Below are positions 1,666-57,439 of a stretch of 64,000 nt of DNA, one piece after another. How positions within the stretch are numbered: position 1 is the first letter of the stretch; every line of letters starts with the position of its first letter. A model generated the notes under the pieces. It worked only from the letters and a program-made list of their open reading frames with translations. It was not told the DNA's origin and did no database searches. This DNA comes from an uncultured archaeon (GTDB taxonomy: Archaea; Thermoproteota; Bathyarchaeia; Bathyarchaeales; Bathycorpusculaceae): NCBI GenBank assembly GCA_963782915.1, contig CAWALK010000018.1, forward strand, positions 203,470-267,469. The letters are read 5' to 3'. The position numbers were made by a program, and so were the translations under genes.

Positions 1666-1896
1666 GGAGGTTCTTGCAGCCTTAGAGTTGATCCTCAGCG
1701 CAGAGACTGATTACGGGTTCTCTGTTGACTATGACGCGGAAGCTAACCCGATTATTGTGGTTGCGCCGAAAATAAAAGTTAACCAGGCAACCAGCAATCC
1801 ATTGATAGGCACTTAGGCTGTGGTCAGCGCTAAATCGTTTTTTTAAAGATTGCGCTTACCAAGAGAAGCAAAAAGAATAGCTGTTTACGGAGTTTT

Positions 1897-1983
1897 CTAT
1901 ATTTAGGGGAGGGGGTAGGTCGGCAGAGCAACAAAAGCTGAACCTATGTTACTTTATAAAAGGGAGGGGGAGGTCACTTTGAG
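1897..1983 (+). repeat. dispersed G-rich intergenic repeat, copy A
   Basis: Aligns with 16374..16458: TATA..AGGGAGGGGGT..GGCAGAGCAACA..CCTAT..TTTA.A.AAGGGAGGGG.AGGT..TGAG. Confidence 0.7.
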
Positions 1984-2062
1984 CTATCGACAGGGCTTCC
2001 AACATAACGTTAATAGCAAATTTTTTAGGCATAAAACACCTTAGTGGGATTAGGCGATAAAT

Positions 2063-16063: not shown

Positions 16064-16373
16064 TAGTTGATGTATCCTTTTCTTTGAATTTACTGATAAG
16101 ATGTGGCTAACTGGGCGGTAATCCTCCCCCAAAACAAGATGCAGACGAGGGTTTACTTGAACCTGTTAACAGTCGTAGACTTTCAGAACAGTTTTTAGCC
16201 TAACTACTTGCAGTTCCGAAAACTTTTCATTTCCTAATTCGGACAATCAAGCTCATTGTTCAGAATTCCGATAGCCAACTTCAGTGCTAATTCCAGATTG
16301 TATTGTGCTATCATTTGATTGATTTGTCGTTCAATGCAAGTTTAGCAATTGCTAGTTCAACCGCTGATTTAAT

Positions 16374-16458
16374 CTATATATAAGGGAGGGGGTCGTTGGC
16401 AGAGCAACAGAAGTTGCCTATTTATTCTTTAAATAAGGGAGGGGTAGGTACCTCTGAG
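16374..16458 (+). repeat. dispersed G-rich intergenic repeat, copy B
   Basis: Homologous to 1897..1983; a further degenerate half near 16487..16513. Confidence 0.7.
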
Positions 16459-16533
16459 GTAGGTAGATCCTGTCTTTTTCCTTTTTCATAGGGGATAGGG
16501 AGTCACTTCAAAGCAACAAACCCCAAACAGCAA

Positions 16534-22869: not shown

Positions 22870-23017
22870 AAAGGATACACCATTGATAACTCGATGCACA
22901 TTGCTGTGCTTGGAATATTTGAAATGTCCGTGTCAAATAGATAAAGTTTGAGCATCATGGAAGCTTTTTCGTACATGGTTAATTAATGAAGCTCAAGTAA
23001 GACACTCTTGCTCGCAC

Positions 23018-23042
23018 GACCTACCCCCTCCCTTATTTATAG
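23018..23042 (-). repeat. dispersed G-rich repeat, single half unit (copy C)
   Basis: Reverse complement CTATAAATAAGGGAGGGGGTAGGTC. Confidence 0.65.
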
Positions 23043-23316
23043 GCTCAACAAGTGTTGAGTTCTGCGTATGGGGCGTCAGCATTCATTGGTTAACTGGCTA
23101 CAGTAGCTGCGTTTGTTTGAGAATTTGAGGGGTTCCTATGCAACTGTTTTGGAGCTTGTTCGGTTATTTTTATCGATTCAACGCTTCGCTACCTCAGGGC
23201 TATATAAAGAGCTGGCTTTGTCAAGATGTACTGATAAGAGAACAGTACTTAGTCAACAAACCTTGACAAGAACGTCTTTTAAACAAAAACCAAACCCACA
23301 AGTTAATGGTGAACAG

Positions 23317-35431: not shown

Positions 35432-36403
35432 TCAGGCAAGCTTTTGATTGGGTATTTCGAGGTTTAATTGCTTCTTTAGTGCCTTGTATCGGTTCCTAAC
35501 CGTGACTTCAGTGACTCCGGCTGCTTCTGCAATGTCTTTTTGTGTTATCTTTTCGTTATTTTGAAGGCAAGCTATGTAGAGGGCTGCTGAAGCCATGCCC
35601 ATCGGGTCTTTTCCGGATACAAATCGTTTTAGCCTCGCTTCCCTTAGAATTGCTATGGCTGTACCCTGTGTTCTGCCTGATATTTTGTTTTTCTCTGCAA
35701 TCTTTGAAACGTAGGTCAACGGGTCAGAAAGGGGCATGTGAAAATCGAGCTCCTGCAGCATCAATCTATAGCAGCGTGCAACGTCTTTTCTATTAACAAG
35801 GCTGGCTTCAGAGATTTCACGAAGGGTTCGGGATGCTCCGCTTTTGCGGCAAGCAGCATACAACGAGGCGGCAGCGACAGCGTTTATGGACCGCCCTCGG
35901 ACTAAACCTTTATCGAGTGCTTTTCTGTAAATGACTGCGGCTTTTTCTTTGAGGGGCGCTGAAACGTTGATGTTGCCGGATAAACGGTCAAGTTCACCCA
36001 TGGCTTGAGAGAGGTTTCGGTCGATGGATGAGTGTACTCTGCTGCGTATTTGCCATTTTCGTAGACGCCACATTTGCAATCTTGTAGACAGAGGCAGTTT
36101 TCTTCCGAAAGCATCTCTGTCAACTTGGCTGATGGTTGTGGATAACCCTTTATCATGAATGGAATATGATGTTGGCATGCCCACGCGGCTTCTTGAGGCT
36201 TTCTCTTGTTGCGTGAAAGCTCGCCATTCAGGTCCCTTATCTAGCATCTGCTCATATAAGATGAGACCGCAGTCGCCACAGATAGTTTCGCCCGTGTCAT
36301 AATCGTGAACAAGATTTATACTTGCACATTCAGGGCATTTGTCAGCTAAGCGCTGAGGCGTTTTAGGGACTTCTTTGACTATATTAACTTGGGTTATACT
36401 CAC
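35432..36403 (-). CDS. tfb: transcription initiation factor IIB (TFB, probably a paralog)
   Basis: CPEC..CGDC Zn ribbon, GPEWRAF, cyclin repeats, VTEVTVRNRYK. Confidence 0.95.
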   Translation of the reverse strand: MSITQVNIVKEVPKTPQRLADKCPECASINLVHDYDTGETICGDCGLILYEQMLDKGPEWRAFTQQEKASRSRVGMPTSYSIHDKGLSTTISQVDRDAFGRKLPLSTRLQMWRLRKWQIRSRVHSSIDRNLSQAMGELDRLSGNINVSAPLKEKAAVIYRKALDKGLVRGRSINAVAAASLYAACRKSGASRTLREISEASLVNRKDVARCYRLMLQELDFHMPLSDPLTYVSKIAEKNKISGRTQGTAIAILREARLKRFVSGKDPMGMASAALYIACLQNNEKITQKDIAEAAGVTEVTVRNRYKALKKQLNLEIPNQKLA

Positions 36404-37058: not shown

Positions 37059-37216
37059 CAACTGCAGCTAACCCAACGCCTATGATAGGAAGGAACCCTC
37101 TAACAGGGCATAGAAAAAAATTGCAGCTTTTTAGCGGTTGTTGCTACAGCCTGTAACAACATCACCTTATATCCAAACTAATCGTAACTCGTTTACTAAG
37201 ACCGAAGATACACCCA

Positions 37217-37308
37217 AGTTGGGCAGGTTTGGCTGCTAACAAAGATAAGCCGGTTCCCCTCTCTCTTTTGCCCTATCGATGTTAGCACACGGCTAAGCCA
37301 GCTTAACT
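37217..37308 (+). ncRNA. putative rod-shaped structured RNA, copy 1
   Basis: Long stem AGTTGGGC/GCTTAACT and GGTTTGGCTG/CGGCTAAGCC, CACA bulge, CTAACA/TGTTAG, pyrimidine loop; TTATAT box about 50 nt upstream, T-tract after. Confidence 0.6.
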
Positions 37309-37402
37309 CTACTTTTTTCCCTTCTGTATCTTGCGTGGTAATTTAGATTCAATAATTTATTGCTTATGCAATTAGCAGGTTGCAATTGGTTGTCAGAGAA
37401 AC

Positions 37403-46997: not shown

Positions 46998-48713
46998 CTA
47001 CACTAGATGGTAGAGCTGAGTTAACGGTAATTCTTTTGCAGGCTCTGAAGTTGCGGGTTTACCGTTGAATGTTACTTTGTATGTTTCAGGATCGATCTTT
47101 ATTTCTCCGAGCGTGTTATTCCGAACCATTTGCTGCTTGCCCAGGTTTCTGACGTTGCGTACTGGTAGAACTTGGCGTTGTATGCCATATTTCTCCTTGA
47201 TGCCATGTTCAATTGCCAATTTCGATGTGAACAATGCGGATGTTGTTGATCTTGCAAGACCGAATCCTCCAAACATTGGTCTGAAGAAGATTGGTTCTAC
47301 TGGTGGAACTGAAGCATTAGGGTCGCCCATCATTGCGTACGCTATGAAACCTCCCTTGAAAACTATGTTAGGTTTTACTCCGAAGAATCGAGGGTCCCAC
47401 AGTACTATGTCAGCCATTTTTCCTTTTTCAAGACTACCCACATAATCGGAAACGCCATTGGTTATAGCAGGATTTATGTTAAGCTTAGCCAAGTACCTCA
47501 ATACTCTAAAGTTGTCGTTGTCTGGAGAGTCTTCCATCAGTTTTCCAAATTGCGCCTTCATTTTGTGTGCGGTTTGCCAGCATCTGGTTGAGACTTCTCC
47601 TGTTCTGCCCATTGCTTGGCTATCAGCTGAATACATGCTCAAAATACCCCAATCGTGGAATACGTCTTCAGCGGCTATGGTTTCGGCTCTAATTCTTGAT
47701 TCTGCAAAGGCAACATCTTCGGGAACTTTTGGATTTAGGTGGTGGGTTACCATAACCATGTCGAGATGCTCATCAATAGTGTTAACGGTATAGGGTCTTG
47801 TTGGGTTTGTTGAGGATGGTAAAGCGTTGGGTTCTCCAGCGATTTTCATGATGTCTGGTGCATGTCCTCCTCCTGCGCCTTCCGTATGATAAGTATGCAC
47901 TGTTCTTCCGTCAATTGCGTCGATAGTGTCGTCAACATAGCCACCTTCATTGAGTGAATCCGTGTGTATCGCTATTTGCACATCGTATTCATCGGCAACA
48001 CTCAAACCAGTGTCCAAAGATGCCCTAGTAGCACCCCAGTCTTCATGCATTTTAAATCCTCCAGCGCCAGCGGCAAGTTCCTCAACCAATGTTTCTTTTC
48101 TGCTATCGTTTGCTTTGCCCAAGATTAGCCAGTTGATGGGTAATCCTCCAATTGCTTCAATCATTTTCCTTATGTTCCAAGGTCCAGGTGTGCAAGTGGT
48201 CGCATTTGTTCCATCCGCAGGTCCTGTGCCTCCACCCACATAGGTTGTTATGCCGTTTGCTATGGCATGGAATACTTGCTGCGGAGAAATCATATGTACA
48301 TGAGTGTCGAAGAAGCCAGCAGTAGCTATCAGCCCTTCTCCGGCTGTTACTTCTGTGGCGTTGCTAACACACAAGTTTTCGTTGACGTTATCCATTGTGT
48401 TCGGATTTCCAGCCTTTCCAATTCCAGCAATCAACCCATTTCTGATGCCTATGTCGGCTTTCACAACGCCCAATATCGGATCCAAAACGACAACGTTGGT
48501 GATAACATGGTCCAGAGCACCATCTGCCTGTGTAGTGCCATCCGCTAAACCCATTCCTTGTCGCGCACTTTTTCCACCGCCGAAAACCAATTCGTCGCCG
48601 TATGTCGCAACATCCTTTTCTACTTCAATGACCAAGTTTGTGTCAGCCAATTGAATCTTATCGCCTTTTGTGGGGCCATATAAGTCAAGATATTGTTTTC
48701 GTGGAATTTTCAT
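46998..48713 (-). CDS. ureC: urease alpha subunit
   Basis: [37 protein letters not shown] and DSQAMGR motifs. Confidence 0.98.
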
Positions 48714-52036: not shown

Positions 52037-52273
52037 GCCTTTTTTAGCTAAATAAAATAATCATAAAATTTTTTCCCAACAAAATATCTATTTTAAATAA
52101 AGTATAACAAATTTTGATAAAGGCATAATGTTTTGTTAGATCTCTAACAATCTATGTTTTACGAATACTGCTTATAGTTATAAAAACGATTAACCTAGAA
52201 TATAATAAAACCCTAATTATTGATTATTAGCAAACGAATTAATCAGATTATTCGTGGAATACCTTGTGCTGCC

Positions 52274-52483
52274 TCAATCGCTGTCATATCCTTGCCACCT
52301 CCACAGGAGAAGATAGGCAAAAAACACCGCAAGCAATGCCCCTGCTATAGGCCCTACTAAATATACCCAATAGTTACTAAAGTCAAGAAGAAAAAGATCT
52401 GGGGCAAAAGAACACGCTGGGTTCATTGATGCGCCAGATATGGCCGCTGCCCAAAGTCCAACCAAGGCAATATAACCGCCCAC
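52274..52483 (-). pseudogene. C-terminal fragment of a MIP/aquaporin
   Basis: ISGASMNPACSFAP..WVYLVGPIAGALLA; N-terminal half missing. Confidence 0.75.
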
Positions 52484-52526
52484 GTTTCTTTTTCAATAGT
52501 CAAAAACAATGGGTGGATTGGCGCAG

Positions 52527-52626
52527 AAGTAATTTAGGCTGGTCTGCTGGCTGGCTTGAAGGTACCCCGTATTAATCTCTCCCTCTCTCTTCCAAAGGTT
52601 TTATCGCACGCGCTATCTTACTTTTT
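52527..52626 (+). ncRNA. degenerate third copy of the rod-shaped RNA
   Basis: TTAGGCTGGTCTGCTG 5' motif, pyrimidine tract, GCACGCGCTA 3' motif, T-tract. Confidence 0.3.
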
Positions 52627-52807
52627 CATTTGGCTGATTAACAAAGGGCTTCATGGAATAACCTTAGAGTATACTGAAGAGAGCTTAAACTCGGATGATC
52701 CAACACATGTTAAATAGATTCCATAATTAGGTTTAATGCATTTGTAGGTATAACAGGCGGGTTATCCATCTTTTTACAAACTAGTCGAGAGATCTATTGT
52801 GTTGTCA

Positions 52808-53458
52808 TCAGTTACTACTTTCAGATTTTCTAAGAGTAACTAACCGAGAAATTAGTATGGCTACGTATAGAGTACCTATTATGGGTTCTATCATGACCAA
52901 GGATTGTGCTTGGAGAGTATTTGGGGTCATGACCCCATCTATTGTGGTGAGGACATAATAGCCATAATAGATGAAGTTTGGGTACTCCATGGCGCTTGGG
53001 ATTGCTGCACTAGAAAATGATCCGGGAGTTACCAACTGGATTAAATGAAAAATCGAGCCGCAAGTTAGCCCTATCAACAGGTAAGTGGCGATACCACCCC
53101 ACAAGAAATCTCTAGTAACATAATCCTTAGCTTTGATTGATACTATTTCAGCAAAAATTATTACCGCTATAAATCCAAATGTAATAGCTGTTAAAGCTCT
53201 AACGACCTCTTCGAGTATTAATGTTCCTTCAATCAAGAAAAGAATTATGAACGTCATAGTTAGAAAAGTGAACGCAATAGTTATTTTTCCACCTATTTTT
53301 GTGCGAAATACTGAAAATCCTGCGGCCACAAGGGACAACGATAAAAACAAATAAGTAAAAACGAATTCTAAACCACTATTTTGAGCGTAGGGAAGAAACA
53401 ACAAAAAGATTACAATCAACAAAGTGACTACAAAGTATCGCGATCGAGAGAGTTTCAA
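52808..53458 (-). CDS. ion-channel (Ion_trans_2/K+ channel-like) membrane protein with degenerate filter
   Basis: YLLIG..G..F, YYGYYVLTTIDGVMTP (TLGYGD position altered), LYVAILISRLV. Confidence 0.75.
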   Translation of the reverse strand: MKLSRSRYFVVTLLIVIFLLFLPYAQNSGLEFVFTYLFLSLSLVAAGFSVFRTKIGGKITIAFTFLTMTFIILFLIEGTLILEEVVRALTAITFGFIAVIIFAEIVSIKAKDYVTRDFLWGGIATYLLIGLTCGSIFHLIQLVTPGSFSSAAIPSAMEYPNFIYYGYYVLTTIDGVMTPNTLQAQSLVMIEPIIGTLYVAILISRLVTLRKSESSN

Positions 53459-53828
53459 ACAATCTTTTTAAAATAAGAGGGCTTATCCATCATTATCGAC
53501 TGCCAGCAAAAGAAAATGCCTAGGAATTAACTAGGCGTTCTTTTGTTCTTAAAGGTTTCAAAGCTGCTTATCCCCACAACCAATTCGTTATATTTTGAGA
53601 TTGAAGATACAGCACGTAACTGCCATTTTTAATCAGATATTGAATCTACAATAAGTAACTGTAAGCTTACACCAACATACATTATTAGCGCGCTCGCAGG
53701 TGAATGAAATGGCAGGAAAAAGTTCTGAATCTCAATCAGCAGAACAGTTGACCAATCTTAGCCGCAATATAGGGGCTGTGACAAGTTTACTAATACTCTG
53801 GCTCTAAAAAGAATAGGAAGTATGAAAG

Positions 53829-54095
53829 ATGGAGAATTTAAAGAAATTTACAACTCACGAGTTAAGCTCTTTTAATGGGAAAAACGGCAAACCTGCATAT
53901 ATTGGCTTCAAAGGCAAAGTGTATGACGTTACCGATTCTGAACAATGGGCGAACGGAGATCATCTTGGCCATAAGGCAGGTCATAACTTGACAGAAGATA
54001 TGGGTCTAGCTCCTCACAGCGAAGACGTTACTAGACGAGCTCGAGATAGTTGGTCTTTTAGTTTAACGCTTAATGCTGTTATTACTTTTTATTAA
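53829..54095 (+). CDS. cytochrome b5-like heme/steroid-binding protein (C-terminus probably frameshifted)
   Basis: FTTHELSSFNG..YIGFKGKVYDVT..H..H.AG..LT..APH. Confidence 0.82.
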   Translation: MENLKKFTTHELSSFNGKNGKPAYIGFKGKVYDVTDSEQWANGDHLGHKAGHNLTEDMGLAPHSEDVTRRARDSWSFSLTLNAVITFY

Positions 54096-54760
54096 AAAGT
54101 ACTCGTTTAATGAACTACCGACTCATCCACAGTCTAGCTATCTCAGGATTTATTCTTCTTGATATTAAATGCTTAGCTTATTGCTTATTATGTTCCCCTA
54201 TTTCTTTTTCTTCCCAGTGCTTGTTTTGGGCAGTCAAACGGAATACGAAGCCAACTGCAAACGATATCAAGGTTGCGGGCCATATGGATAGCCCCGCAAT
54301 GTAGCAAATTAGGTATAGACTACGCTGGCTAGAAGGGCTGTACCAACAAAGAATTCGCCCTTAATAAAATGCTGGGGAGTAGACTCCCGATACTATATCA
54401 ATAATGAATCGACCGGCAGTTGGACCTATTATACCAATAAGAATAGCGGCTATTTCTGGCAATCCTGTTACCTAGTGCACTTGTTTACTCAGACAGCTGT
54501 ATAACAAGGATAGAGAAAAGGCAACCATATACCTAAGAGTGCATACTTTAAGTTTCTGAAAACTTTGGTAAGATAGACCTAAAGCGATGATACCTGCGGC
54601 TGTACATAATATTATGAACTAAGGATTAGTAAATGCTGCTGAAATATCGTTGAGAAAAAGGTAACGTGCTACGACTAAGCCTATTCCCCCAATTATGGCA
54701 AGAAGTACTATTCCAATTCTTGTAAAGTTTCTGTAATGGTCTGGCTGCCTTGCAAAAGTA
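54060..54760 (-). pseudogene. disrupted multi-TM membrane protein
   Basis: Hydrophobic reading-frame fragments (RIGIVLLAIIGGIGLVVARYLF...) broken by stops and frameshifts. Confidence 0.4.
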
Positions 54761-55131
54761 AAACCTCAAGAAACTCGTTGGTTGTAGCTGCAATGAAATC
54801 GATTATTGTAAAAGCATGAACAATCTAAATTGCCAATTTGTAAAATTCAAAAATTGTGATATATCCTTACGTCGAAGACAATATAGCGACTTCAACTTTA
54901 TACTATAACTTAATCGTAAGTTGTGATATTTAACGATATGTAGTGGTTTTATTGACGTAACACTTGACAGATGTAGGTATAAATTGTTAGGATTAATGGA
55001 GGAATTTTCAAGGATTTAATGCGTTTTATCTACTGGTCAACTAAATTGGGCCTTTTTTGTTGCATCAGCTTGTTACCAGCAAGCGCTTATATCACACGTA
55101 CAGGTTAGCTGTTGTTACACAAGGGATAGCC

Positions 55132-55233
55132 AATTGTTAGGCGGGTCTCGCTGTTAACAAAGGAAAAGGCTTTTGCTTCTACCTTTTAGCCACTTCTTTG
55201 TTGACACACGGCTTGGTCCGTTTATCGATAATT
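55132..55233 (+). ncRNA. putative rod-shaped structured RNA, copy 2
   Basis: AATTGTT/GATAATT, TAGGCGGG/TCCGTTTA, GCTG/CGGC, CACA bulge, TTAACAAAG/CTTTGTTGA, GGCT/AGCC, pyrimidine loop; TTATAT box at 55087. Confidence 0.6.
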
Positions 55234-55268
55234 CTTGTTGACTACTTTGATGTATCTTAACCAAGGTA

Positions 55269-55397
55269 TTGTTTGTGTATAAAAAAATCTCTTCGCTTTG
55301 TCAATGCCCAATATGCGACACCGTTCTGTCCAATCCAAACGAATTAAGGGAGCACCGTTTACATGACCATAAAAGCATTTATGCTCTAACAAAATAG
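55269..55397 (+). CDS. 42-aa classical C2H2 zinc-finger microprotein (not in the ORF track)
   Basis: CPIC-DTVLSNPNELRE-HRLHDH = C-x2-C-x12-H-x4-H. Confidence 0.65.
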   Translation: MFVYKKISSLCQCPICDTVLSNPNELREHRLHDHKSIYALTK

Positions 55398-55528
55398 CGA
55401 TTTAAAGAAATTCTACGACAAGGATTTATGCCGATCGAGTAAAAAATGATTGGCGTAATTTAGTGTACAATTGTAATTAATAGAAAATGCAGACAAAAGA
55501 AAAGTAAAAATGGCTTAACAATTTTTTA

Positions 55529-55777
55529 TTAAATTAAATTTGTTTTGCCTAATAGACAAATAATCTTTTCTGTCAGGAGTTCTTCAGATATTGTTTCTCC
55601 TGTAAGCTGTTTATGCAGCTTTATGTGATTTATAACTGCAATTTCCATCGCAAACAAATCAGGCACAACCAGTATTTGCACCCCACAATCACAAAGAAAA
55701 ATAGGCATCCTACCCTTCGGCAAATTGGTTTCTTTACACCTAACATCATTGCAATTTTGCGAAATACTATCCTTCAT
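55529..55777 (-). CDS. small CxC...HxxxH protein
   Basis: MPIFLCDCGVQILVVPDL..NHIKLH; GAGG RBS. Confidence 0.65.
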   Translation of the reverse strand: MKDSISQNCNDVRCKETNLPKGRMPIFLCDCGVQILVVPDLFAMEIAVINHIKLHKQLTGETISEELLTEKIICLLGKTNLI

Positions 55778-56374
55778 AAAAAAGCCCTCAATTTTACTAT
55801 TAGCGAATATTAGCTACCTATCGCTTTTTAAAAAAACGCTGTAGGCTCAATACAATCACAAATCGCTTTATCCCATGGCGTACAAAGGGTTGCCCTTTCA
55901 GAACTCAGCATACCCGCCTTGGACTTTTGATGGAGAGATAATTTTTTGCCCAAGCCCTTACAGAGTTGACAGAACCCAAATTAGCATTATACAATGGACA
56001 AGCAACGCCTGCAAACCCAGCCTATTTGAACCCATTACATTACTATGTAATTATACCACCAAAAGGAATAATGAAGCTCCAAAGAACTATGCAAACGCTA
56101 CCTTAACGTAAGGGGGCTTGCCAATTAAGAGAGGGTTATTTGAATTCTGAAGCTAAATCGATAAATCGGAGAAAACATTCTCATTGTTAGGCAGCTTTTT
56201 TCTTGGTGGTGGGCAAAAAAATGTGTGATTGTGTTTATTCTAGTGCAGAAAGGGACTGTCATAAAGCTGACAAAGAAAAGTTCGAAGCTGAGCAAGGGTT
56301 GGATAAAAAACGCTTCTGGCAGTTAAGATTGGCGTGATACCGCTCCCTTTTTATTTAGTGGAGGCTCCCACTTT

Positions 56375-56575
56375 TTAGTGGGTGTTTTTTCTTGCGCAGT
56401 AAAAGTTGCCGTTTAACCTCGTGAAGGCAGGGCATTTCCCGTCCTCGCAATGGGTCAGCCATTGGCAGGGCAAGTTCACTTCATACACTCGGGGCATATA
56501 ATCATGAGAAGCCACCATTGGGGGTTTTAGTTTTAGTTCAAACGCTTCTTGAAAAACAGTTTCCATATTATGCAC
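56375..56575 (-). CDS. small Cys-rich protein
   Basis: CQWLTHCEDGKCPAF..YC; AGGTG RBS. Confidence 0.55.
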   Translation of the reverse strand: MHNMETVFQEAFELKLKPPMVASHDYMPRVYEVNLPCQWLTHCEDGKCPAFTRLNGNFYCARKNTH

Positions 56576-56651
56576 CTAAGAATTGATTGATTAACCTTTT
56601 ACTCGATTGCTATTAACGATTTGTTGGCGTATCCAGACGACTACAAATACG

Positions 56652-56948
56652 TTAGTAACTGGGCAAGCTGGGCACTTGAGGAATCGCAAAATCCAAGTTA
56701 CCGCGGATGCTAGCTGTGCGGTCGTCTATCAAAAGCGTTAAAGAGCTGGTTACGCCGGATACTTGTTTTATTTGAAATCGGGTAATGTTTTTCACGTCTT
56801 CTATAGATGACGCATTGATTTTTACAAAGAAGTCATAGACGCCGTACAGGGCATGGGCTTCTTCTACGCCGTCAACCAGTTTTAGGTTTTCTAGCACGTT
56901 ATTTTGGGCGTCTAAATCTGTGTTTACTAATATTACTGCTGATACCAT
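56652..56948 (-). CDS. Lrp/AsnC ligand-binding (RAM) domain protein
   Basis: AVILVNT..GVEEAHALYGVYD..GVTSSLTL. Confidence 0.88.
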   Translation of the reverse strand: MVSAVILVNTDLDAQNNVLENLKLVDGVEEAHALYGVYDFFVKINASSIEDVKNITRFQIKQVSGVTSSLTLLIDDRTASIRGNLDFAIPQVPSLPSY

Positions 56949-57439
56949 TTTTCAAACCTCGTTATTCCGCATTAAGCGACAAAATCCTAGTTAAGCCTGT
57001 GTTGTTGCATGAGTGATACAACAACCGCAACATCCGCAAAATTAACGGGCTAATAGCCGAAGGTTTCTTTTAAATAGAATTCGACTCGCAAGCATTTTTT
57101 TGGTGGCTCGAATTAAGAGTAAAAAATCCCTCTGTAAGTACGGTTACATTGTTAGATGCTGTTTAAACCAAAATAAAAAGGGAATTGCACCAATGACTAC
57201 TATTGCCACAATGATAGAAATCGACGTTGCTAAGAAGTAACGTAAGTAAGAGATTCTATTATTGATATGCTCCAAGTAAATAAGCATACAAATGATAAAT
57301 ATTTATAAGCCATTTTATGGCAATACACAGTTATCTTTCAAAGGGGGAAGTAGGCAATCAAAAACTTGACACCACTAGAGAATCTAGATATTGGAACAAT
57401 CAAGGGCTCAAACACACATTTTGGGAAGGATTACTACCT

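Follow-up and report, generated by a model that had tools for sequence, protein, structure and literature searches.

The window analysed here comprises 64,000 nucleotides (nt) from an uncultured archaeon of the Bathyarchaeia and corresponds to positions 203470-267469 of contig C18 in the source genome (G000:C18:203470-267469; GenBank contig CAWALK010000018.1), a 3.28-Mb assembly of 25 contigs with about 45% G+C. It contains two copies, hereafter A and B, of a long hairpin element that an initial annotation had put forward as a candidate family of promoter-driven non-coding RNAs. The parts of the two copies are as follows:

37138-37159 (+): copy A, inverted repeat TTGTTGC-N8-GTAACAA ahead of CAT and the TATA-like box; might serve as an operator or as an element resembling the B recognition element (BRE)
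37167-37172 (+): copy A, TATA-like box TTATAT with putative promoter function
37195-37216 (+): copy A, purine-rich 5' tail, predicted to be single-stranded and placed by the usual distance between TATA box and start site
37217-37308 (+): copy A, rod-shaped hairpin (model match 37216-37318, 105.5 bits)
37254-37269 (+): copy A, C/U-rich apical loop TTCCCCTCTCTCTTTT, an exact motif that recurs in loops of sister families
37287-37290 (+): copy A, 4-nt bulge ACAC in the 3' strand, flanked by the most conserved pairs
37313-37318 (+): copy A, run of six T, an oligo-T terminator-like signal
55057-55078 (+): copy B, upstream inverted repeat TTGTTGC-N8-GTTACCA
55087-55092 (+): copy B, TATA-like box TTATAT
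55133-55229 (+): copy B, rod-shaped hairpin (model match 55134-55237, 89.8 bits)
55206-55209 (+): copy B, bulge ACAC, with the loop at about 55172-55187

The letters agree well with what had been claimed for the two copies. A TTATAT box precedes a GGC triplet in both, at 37167-37172 with 55 nt to the GGC at 37222 in copy A and at 55087-55092 with 53 nt to the one at 55140 in copy B. The shared strands TTRGGCRGGTYTSGCTGYTAACAAAG on the 5' side and TGTTRRCACACGGCT on the 3' side are present in copies A and B and are followed by a T-rich end, while the pyrimidine-rich loops read TTCCCCTCTCTCTT in one copy and TTTGCTTCTACCTTTT in the other. Both copies fold into the same interrupted rod, with -34.5 kcal/mol and a z-score of -1.99 for copy A (37217-37308; reverse strand z +0.98) and -38.6 kcal/mol and a z-score of -3.30 for copy B (55133-55229; reverse strand z -1.52). 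The reverse complements fold no better than shuffled sequences, or slightly better. The differences that were said to preserve pairing are real: a C-G pair is replaced by U-A in CTAACA/TGTTAG versus TTAACA/TGTTGA, and the basal helices of the two copies differ by one-sided G-U, A-U and G-C changes. The bulge, described initially as an invariant CACA, is indeed invariant in copies A and B but reads R-C-A-N across the 94 distinct members of the family described below, with A in 47 and G in 35 of them at the first position, C in 79 at the second, A in 66 at the third and any base at the fourth. With regard to loop and tail, copy A is of the CCCUCUCUCUU type and copy B of the CAAGGGAUAGCCAA-tail type. 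In copy B, the subfamily tail ..CAAGGGATAGCCAA precedes the hairpin and a weak T-run, TTCTTGTT, follows it. No conserved open reading frame (ORF) is present in copies A and B, where the overlapping frames comprise only 20-36 amino acids (aa).

Family, fold and flanking signals

The element proved to be multi-copy, as had been proposed. In the source genome, nhmmer detected nine copies at E < 1e-4, spread over six contigs; two of these form a divergently arranged pair on contig C15 and lie 450 nt apart. BLAST identity between the nine paralogues is 77-82%. A covariance model built from the nine copies and termed R1 scored all of them at E <= 7e-20 and one further locus, C25:344-461, at 3e-5. 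A search for homologues in the Bathyarchaeia, as suggested in the initial annotation, did yield further members, and the matches of R1 came from one genus: it matched in 19 of 24 other genomes of the genus, giving 96 members in 20 of 25 genomes. Of these members 94 are distinct, as two related genomes share two pairs of identical copies. There was no match in 16 genomes from 11 other families of the order, and when another 100 genomes were drawn from the same family, one of the two from the same genus matched and none of the 98 from 69 other genera; note that these genome sets are samples and that some genomes are incomplete. An exact two-part motif, searched in one genome for each of 185,579 species, occurred in 27 stretches, 24 of which are titled Bathyarchaeia, Bathyarchaeota or Ca. 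Bathycorpusculum and one 'uncultured archaeon'. The remaining two, L041 and L059, are titled Methanocella sp. and Candidatus Acidoferrum sp., which may reflect binning or labelling rather than transfer. The same exact motif was present in 41 metagenome contigs and in none of 2.9 million viral contigs.

All nine copies of the source genome fold individually to one architecture. At its base, the rod has a helix of about 16 bp that is interrupted by one mismatch. Towards the tip follow the 4-nt bulge in the 3' strand, the second helix, an upper stem that is imperfect and purine-rich on its 5' side and, finally, an apical loop of 12-20 nt. The consensus can be written as nnGUUngGCgGgUnugGCuGcuaa ... 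C-rich ... UUUU ... uguuagC-[R-C-A-N]-GGcUanauccgCuuAac-n5-UUUU. Conservation of the pairs is highest on either side of the bulge, where GGCU faces GGCU with two G-U pairs and then G-C. RNAalifold predicted 23 pairs for the nine copies, nine of them with double changes. In the alignment of all 96 members, 90.3% of 2138 cells pair and 16 of the 23 pairs show double changes, in 126 cells, in agreement with the covarying stems proposed for the two window copies; a set of 38 sequences gave the same picture of pairing. None of 500 column shuffles reached the observed values on any of five measures, and when the 3' partners were slid by 1-3 columns, pairing fell to 20-44% as compared with 90.3% in the true register. 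The 96-member alignment was fitted to the model and therefore leans towards structure, but given the loss of pairing on sliding and the number of different pair types, the fold is secure nonetheless. Cells with G-U or U-G number 411 and those with A-C or C-A only 75, from which it follows that the folded molecule is RNA of the + strand. The marks of a structured RNA, compensatory changes above the level of the controls and strand asymmetry, are thus both present, and we are highly confident that the elements form a genuine family of structured RNA genes.

That the elements are driven by promoters finds support in the flanking sequences. The following counts refer to the 95 members for which 100 nt or more of upstream sequence is available; 83 of them have a TATA-like motif 30-85 nt 5' of the hairpin. 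The upstream elements stand in the same order in almost every member, namely the inverted repeat TTGTTGY-N-..-GYAACAA, then CAT and a few bases, then the TATA-like box; they are conserved across paralogues and species and occur on one side only. A loose regular expression found the inverted repeat in 69 of the 95 members, and a strict expression for the inverted-repeat promoter matched at 11 sites in the genome, eight of them at family copies. Directly 3' of the hairpin, four or more T follow in 85 of the 95, and alignment columns 169-171 are U in 89-97%. Judged by these sequences, the elements have a promoter and a terminator of their own, as is characteristic of independent small RNA genes. 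The start of the TATA-like box lies 39-73 nt, mostly 45-66 nt, from the hairpin. Archaeal TATA boxes have a usual spacing to the start site, and a 5' tail of about 20-30 nt is predicted when both distances are taken together.

Tail and loop are the variable parts of the element. The initial idea of a conserved scaffold with a variable loop fits this anatomy insofar as basal helix and bulge are conserved, while both the loop and the 5' tail are specific for subfamilies. On average, purines make up 64% of the 30 nt 5' of the hairpin and pyrimidines 74% of the central 25 nt (96 members), where 73 of 96 have U4. The 5' tails fall into groups that recur across genomes. CAAGGGATAGCCAAC is found exactly in 15 of the 96 members, where it is combined with differing loops, CTAAGAGCC in 13, GACATAGTCC-like tails in seven and GGTGCCCGAC in five. 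As to the loops, TGCCCACC is present in 15 of 96 members and CCCTCTCTCTT in five exactly and in seven with one change allowed, and the others are C-rich strings.

Comparison with Rfam 15 bears out the statement that no known family is recognisable. At gathering scores the whole window yielded only two tRNAs and a match to 5_ureB_sRNA, all located elsewhere. When copies A and B were searched at E <= 10, the best match was mir-1420 with 16.3 bits as opposed to a gathering score of 70, and seven further loci, comprising paralogues and members of sister families, gave only mir-3926 at E <= 1 (31 bits versus 82). The 5_ureB_sRNA match (48266-48565, +; 55.2 bits, gathering score 40) lies antisense to a 571-aa ORF (46998-48713, -), which we take to encode the large urease subunit; it is probably a case of the model hitting conserved urease coding sequence and not a real small RNA.

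Known classes of archaeal guide RNAs were considered as well. Like H/ACA and C/D guides, the present elements are small structured archaeal RNAs with many copies, a conserved scaffold and variable single-stranded parts. As C/D box RNAs they can be dismissed: the C box RUGAUGA is present in none of 96 members, CUGA near the 3' end in five and both together in none. The same applies to H/ACA RNAs, because ACA occurs in the 7 nt between hairpin and T-run in only six of 96 members and a two-sided internal loop of pocket size is lacking. Copies A and B do contain an ACA-like triplet, yet it resides in the internal bulge reading R-C-A-N. In Y RNAs, the 5' and 3' parts pair into a long stem, a bulged helix is conserved and an unpaired region is rich in pyrimidines, and the present elements resemble Y RNA and 6S RNA in these respects. 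A Y RNA/Ro system was rejected, since the TROVE domain (PF05731) had no match in the genome, which is 93.5% complete, while control genomes were positive, and since no Y_RNA match was obtained. Nor was there a match to 6S RNA; the elements are devoid of the large central bubble of the 6S type and differ further by being multi-copy and by having subfamily-specific tails.

The closest known design is that of the cuckoo or CcsR RNAs of Alphaproteobacteria (alpha-r14, NfeR), and the likeness is one of design only. According to one report, CcsR RNAs are multi-copy hairpins with CCUCCUCCC loops directed against Shine-Dalgarno (SD) sequences, adjoin small DUF1127 genes, one of whose products binds RNA, and are derived from untranslated regions (UTRs) in some species (PMC8034643). 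The two systems share multi-copy and sometimes tandem hairpins with pyrimidine-rich, anti-SD-like loops and a recurrent position beside a gene for a very small protein, with the RNA 5' or 3' of the gene. They show no similarity in sequence or at the level of the models. The bacterial RNAs are described as two short hairpins, each with a CCUCCUCCC loop, a defining feature that is absent here, where a single interrupted rod of about 35 bp ends in loops reading CCCCUCUCUCUU(CC) or other strings that are first C- and then U-rich. In addition, the present RNAs have an archaeal host, a TATA-type promoter and a C2H2 neighbour (DUF1127 was not searched for).

Neighbouring genes and related elements

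The neighbourhood of the two copies contains three genes that deserve mention, the first of them in a conspicuous position:

55275-55397 (+): small C2H2 zinc-finger ORF of about 40 aa (CPIC-x12-H-x4-H), directly 3' of copy B
56652-56948 (-): stand-alone Lrp/AsnC ligand-binding (RAM) domain gene, about 1.4 kb 3' of copy B (PF01037, 38.8 bits)
35432-36403 (-): paralogue of transcription factor B (TFB, TFIIB), divergent, about 0.75 kb 5' of the copy A promoter; context only

The zinc-finger proteins form a family with the spacing C-x2-C-x12-H-x4-H, the pattern CPIC..LREHR..HKG, a length of about 39-42 aa and the C-terminus HKGQSR. The window ORF scores 21.9 bits against zf-C2H2 and remains below the cut-off of 25.2, while its paralogue at the D/G locus, between the divergent pair of RNA genes, passes with 26.8. 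A six-frame scan for the C2H2 motif returned 31 matches genome-wide. Four of these ORFs are within 500 nt of the RNA loci, one after copy B, one between the divergent pair and two before members of a sister family. Elsewhere, an intact CPIC/CLIC..LRxHR ORF precedes the RNA on the same strand by about 130-200 nt at six of the 41 metagenome loci and at two loci from species genomes, and any C2H2 motif within 1 kb is found at eight of the 41. Further zinc-finger ORFs were located as follows:

L122:2338-2454
L124:48-164
L139:981-1097, with its stop codon about 10 nt before the inverted repeat of the RNA (the one locus inspected in full)
L042:3986-4099 (-)

The link with the zinc finger is thus recurrent and old, but not obligatory. 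Small archaeal zinc-finger proteins are known, and the proteins described here resemble them in being very small and in having a single zinc-binding motif; micro-proteins of Haloferax have been named in this connection too, and one study reports that a viral archaeal C2H2-type protein binds DNA (PMC3541406). What distinguishes the present family from the known archaeal one-domain zinc fingers is the classical C-x2-C-x12-H-x4-H spacing and the conserved place beside a small RNA gene.

Other neighbours are less consistent. No downstream gene family is common to the loci: the ORFs differ among the nine paralogues, and clustering of the 1.5-kb flanks of 38 loci did not reveal one either. The conserved downstream gene by which a cis-acting leader or riboswitch is recognised was accordingly not found. 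Synteny is retained at some orthologous loci, as in the case of three that lie 5' of a mevalonate-kinase-like gene (named by motif). A RAM domain was considered as an associated gene. Within 2.5 kb of the RNA loci lie four of 27 RAM matches in the genome, and five of the 38 loci with clustered flanks have such a neighbour; we treat the association as weak because a regular expression found it at none of the 41 metagenome loci. Neighbours of 83 aa at four loci form a family, for which no Pfam model scored above its cut-off. TFB is encoded by five genes in the genome (10 cyclin-repeat matches), a number that would leave room for several classes of promoter. Copy B is situated in a gene-poor stretch of about 5 kb (52040-57310) with no ORF above 100 aa except 52808-53458 (-); it also holds a decayed hairpin, the zinc-finger ORF, a cytochrome b5-like ORF (53829-54095) and the RAM gene.

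The promoter type of the RNA genes has relatives elsewhere in the genome. A repeated promoter-like design, TTGTTGTGTATAGGnGnTTTTnGGCAACAACAACTATAGA, is found at G000:C1:119721-119760 (+) and at no fewer than 11 similar sites, one of which lies about 75 nt 5' of the ATG of a short ORF rich in lysine and arginine. The TTGTTG/CAACAA inverted repeat 5' of a TATA box hence seems to be a wider feature of the lineage. A 41-aa zinc-ribbon ORF (CPHC..CPQC; L121:809-934, -, corresponding to G000:C19) about 600 nt 5' of a family copy is preceded by the same type of inverted-repeat promoter as the RNA genes, and the shared promoter type may define a small regulon of RNAs and micro-proteins.

Further long hairpins in the genome are related to the family through their loops. 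The 12-mer CCCTCTCTCTTC occurs at 33 sites when one change is allowed, and in many cases the site forms the apical loop of another long hairpin that is likewise preceded by promoter-like sequence. The loop motif CCCUCUCUCUUCC is common to these sister families. A second hairpin family has this loop, a second C/U motif in its 3' tail and promoter-like sequence of its own (TTGTTG..CACAT..TTATTTA). It stands in tandem, about 110 nt 3' of three family copies in the source genome and at four of 29 loci examined elsewhere. Sites of the sister families are:

C9:4700-4900, C15:260350-260560, C20:377700-377900 and C20:238560-238760 (-): second hairpin family, also at L009, L011, L013 and L034
C15:258868-258975 and C25:343-452 (+): third hairpin family, two intact members

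The sequence at 52527-52626 (+) in the window, originally listed as a decayed third copy, is a decayed relative, but it belongs to a sister family and not to that of copies A and B. A three-way alignment showed copies A and B to be clearly homologous and 52527-52626 only loosely so. It was matched neither by nhmmer nor by R1 with filters off at E <= 10, and it shares 112 of 171 aligned positions (65%) with the member of the third family at C15:258868-258975. It keeps the 5' arm and the loop TCTCTCCCTCTCTCTTCC, whereas the 3' arm has been lost. In line with this, it does not fold into a rod (-19 kcal/mol, z -0.12, versus -37 and -27 kcal/mol for the intact relatives).

Our analysis also yielded insight into a G-rich element of the genome. 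With up to one mismatch, the 10-mer AGGGAGGGGG has 226 sites in the genome versus about 112 expected from composition. At 176 of them a TATA-like box lies directly upstream, and 154 have a conserved downstream block (..GCAGAGCAACA.. or ..GAGGTAGGTAG..). These parts form a repeated module consisting of TATA(A/T)ATA, AGGGAGGGGG, about 7 nt and GCAGAGCAACA (or ..CTCTGAGGTAGGTAGGTCC), sometimes with two or three in a row. Modules in the window are located at:

1892-1990 (+)
16370-16470 (+)
23010-23047 (-)

The G-rich element sits between the TATA box and the likely start site and is therefore probably not transcribed in most copies; 14 copies follow another one within 40-80 nt on the same strand and could be transcribed. 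A G-rich block in this position is unusual, and it is possibly linked to one of the TFB paralogues. In a hand alignment, the loop CCCCUCUCUCUU and AAGGGAGGGGG form 11 contiguous base pairs, nine of them Watson-Crick and two G-U.

Possible function of the RNA family

On the basis of sequence comparison, the elements probably constitute a lineage-specific family of independently transcribed small non-coding RNAs of about 125-135 nt. The TATA-like box, the T-run, the conserved inverted repeat, the differing neighbours, the synteny kept at orthologous loci and the lack of a conserved ORF all argue that each element is its own transcription unit. In this model, every gene would have its own archaeal promoter, composed of TTGTTGY..N..GYAACAA, a CAT/BRE-like stretch and a TATA-like box, and its own oligo-T terminator. 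The predicted transcript would start with a purine-rich 5' tail of about 20-30 nt and continue as an interrupted rod of about 35 bp, in which the basal helix and the 4-nt 3' bulge would be common to all members, while the 5' tail and the apical loop, first C-rich and then with four or five U, would vary by subfamily. The conserved rod could serve as a platform for a protein, for which the small C2H2 protein is one candidate and an Sm-like protein on the U tracts another; Sm proteins prefer U-rich RNA. The single-stranded tail, the loop or both may then pair in trans with purine-rich or otherwise complementary stretches of mRNA and thereby affect translation or stability. The RNAs would thus be an archaeal counterpart of multi-copy bacterial small RNAs with C/U-rich loops. 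The full mechanism, i.e., a protein-binding rod combined with base pairing in trans by tail or loop, is put forward tentatively, as the most likely of the readings considered, in which we place somewhat less than even confidence.

Several observations weigh against this view. Guide or antisense action had been suggested at the outset, but RNAduplex revealed no enrichment of pairing at start regions as compared with coding windows or a shuffled query. The comparison comprised loops and tails (two loops and three tails; six short query strings) and 2286 start regions and is a weak one, since gene starts were crudely defined as the first ATG of ORFs of at least 150 aa. The loop of copy A, for example, averaged -9.71 at starts as compared with -9.68 in coding windows, while the mean of the shuffled query was -10.07. 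Nor do SD sequences appear to be likely targets: GGAG or GAGG was present at -16 to -6 in only about 9-10% of the crude starts, and a general anti-SD role would therefore reach few genes. The 3' end of the 16S rRNA reads ..CACCUCCU (also given as ..GGATCACCTCCT). The AGGGAGGGG repeats, also suggested as targets, are not over-represented in the window, with eight matches versus 6.8 expected. An antisense BLAST search with nine predicted transcripts produced a single lead, in which the C9 copy could pair through its 5' tail, at 22 of 23 positions, with codons 17-24 of an ORF on the sense strand encoding a 186-aa membrane protein (G000:C15:97976-98536, +; E 0.001 for that query); the other matches were exact over 14-17 nt and at chance level. 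With nine queries, the overall chance of the 22/23 match is about 0.01, and the C9 tail is unique to the source genome.

Further points concern the transcript and its presumed partner. Expression, start site, 3' end and size of the RNA are predictions. The promoter design is not exclusive, since a related TTGTTG..CAACAA-TATA class precedes protein genes (TTGTTG..CAACAAC-TATAGA). Archaeal RNA polymerase terminates at oligo-T; 42 of the 96 members contain T5 inside the loop, so that the polymerase could stop early and the full rod might not be the main product. As for the zinc finger, only one of nine matches in five related genomes adjoins a family member, and that one has two stop codons, while degenerate zinc-finger remnants stand at the same place in L010 and L014.

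Alternatively, the RNA could act through protein binding alone. As a scaffold or sponge devoid of pairing targets, the rod with its C/U- and U-rich loop would titrate or assemble a protein, and copy number would set the dose. The single C2H2 zinc finger encoded nearby, an Sm-like protein or some different factor that binds pyrimidines are the candidates. Conservation is highest in a bulged double-stranded base with G-U pairs, a typical feature where proteins bind. Hairpin families that otherwise differ have CCCUCUCUCUUCC without a single changed letter, and its repetition in the 3' tail of one of them recalls sponge RNAs. In addition, the zinc-finger gene recurs upstream, target enrichment at start codons is lacking, and the zinc finger at the D/G locus weakly matches the double-stranded RNA-binding zf-C2H2_jaz (21.6 bits, below the threshold of 22.6). 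On the other hand, a protein site shared by all members would leave the strongly conserved, subfamily-specific 5' tails unexplained, many loci lack the zinc-finger gene or contain a decayed one, and TROVE/Ro is absent from the genome. We regard this explanation as a serious one that is nevertheless unlikely. A further and distinctly less probable view starts from the neighbouring small gene. Here, the element would act in cis as the 3' UTR of the gene upstream or as the 5' leader of the gene downstream and govern how stable that mRNA is, where it terminates or how it is translated, or would be processed from it. Copy B has only a weak T-run and the zinc-finger ORF starts about 45 nt after its hairpin, an SD-like AGGAG and an ORF that starts with MEFCKECG come after one hairpin of a sister family, and the L139 zinc-finger ORF ends about 10 nt before the element, with similar spacing in several contigs. 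A precedent is given by the UTR-derived CcsR RNAs mentioned above. Against such an origin, in most members a TATA-like box and an inverted repeat separate the hairpin from the upstream gene and a T-run follows on its other side, neighbours vary widely among paralogues, and the RNA persists where the zinc-finger ORF has decayed. The structured leader offered initially as an alternative therefore does not fit most loci, where the downstream genes differ; it applies at most to a minority, possibly to copy B and one sister locus.

Two other explanations have little to recommend them. A global regulator is conceivable whose C/U loops pair with AAGGGAGGGGG after the TATA box at about 150-180 sites, either in transcripts running through tandem modules or on melted DNA. 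The 11-bp fit of the CCCCUCUCUCUU loop, the excess of the element over expectation and the 14 possibly transcribed copies speak for this idea. Yet a pyrimidine tract fits a purine tract in about one of eight cases per register when G-U pairs are allowed (our own estimate), the element is usually not transcribed, only five to seven of 96 members contain the loop motif, and the polarity of the loop is unfit for a parallel pyrimidine triplex; such a regulator is very improbable. Even less credit is due to a repeat acting at the level of DNA without RNA function, be it a miniature mobile element, a protein-binding palindrome or the terminator hairpin of a neighbouring gene. Multiple copies, the identical copy pairs in two related genomes and the frequent location in gene-poor stretches would be in keeping with it. 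Pairing is strand-asymmetric, however, with the 411 G-U against 75 A-C cells noted above, and the paralogues have diverged while compensatory changes kept the pairing. Synteny is kept, the element is absent from the viral contigs, and promoter-like sequence is present on one side only. Moreover, mobile elements or repetitive extragenic palindromes are recognised by a symmetric palindrome, near-identical copies and insertion polymorphism; the present elements pair asymmetrically, and their paralogues are 77-82% identical. A repeat of this kind comes close to being negligible.

Finally, the separate threads can be combined in a riboregulatory system in which related RNA families (about 17-19 genes per genome) with a shared operator and the CCCUCUCUCUUCC loop would cooperate with the one-finger C2H2 protein and pair with AAGGGAGGGGG at about 150-180 modules. 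This is a long shot. If true, the system would tune a large share of the transcriptome and provide an archaeon with a small RNA layer tied to a promoter class.

Independently of the mechanism, the family would be a marker for its genus and a ready candidate for Rfam, with a length of about 100 nt, about 100 members in genomes and additional copies in metagenomes; this candidacy rests on clear covariation and a recognisable promoter. Even if it were only a structured element without function in trans, it would still be useful for genome annotation. Titles and opening lines of abstracts in the literature gave no description of small RNAs from Bathyarchaeia. The likeness in design to the cuckoo/CcsR RNAs and their small RNA-binding protein would represent convergence across domains. 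Bathyarchaeia rank with the most abundant uncultured archaea in sediments, peat and soils, and a soil and peat archaeon of this group carries many copies of a previously undescribed small RNA gene. Its rod, the subfamily-specific tails and loops and the recurrent C2H2 gene lead to testable hypotheses on post-transcriptional control in a group of organisms without genetics.

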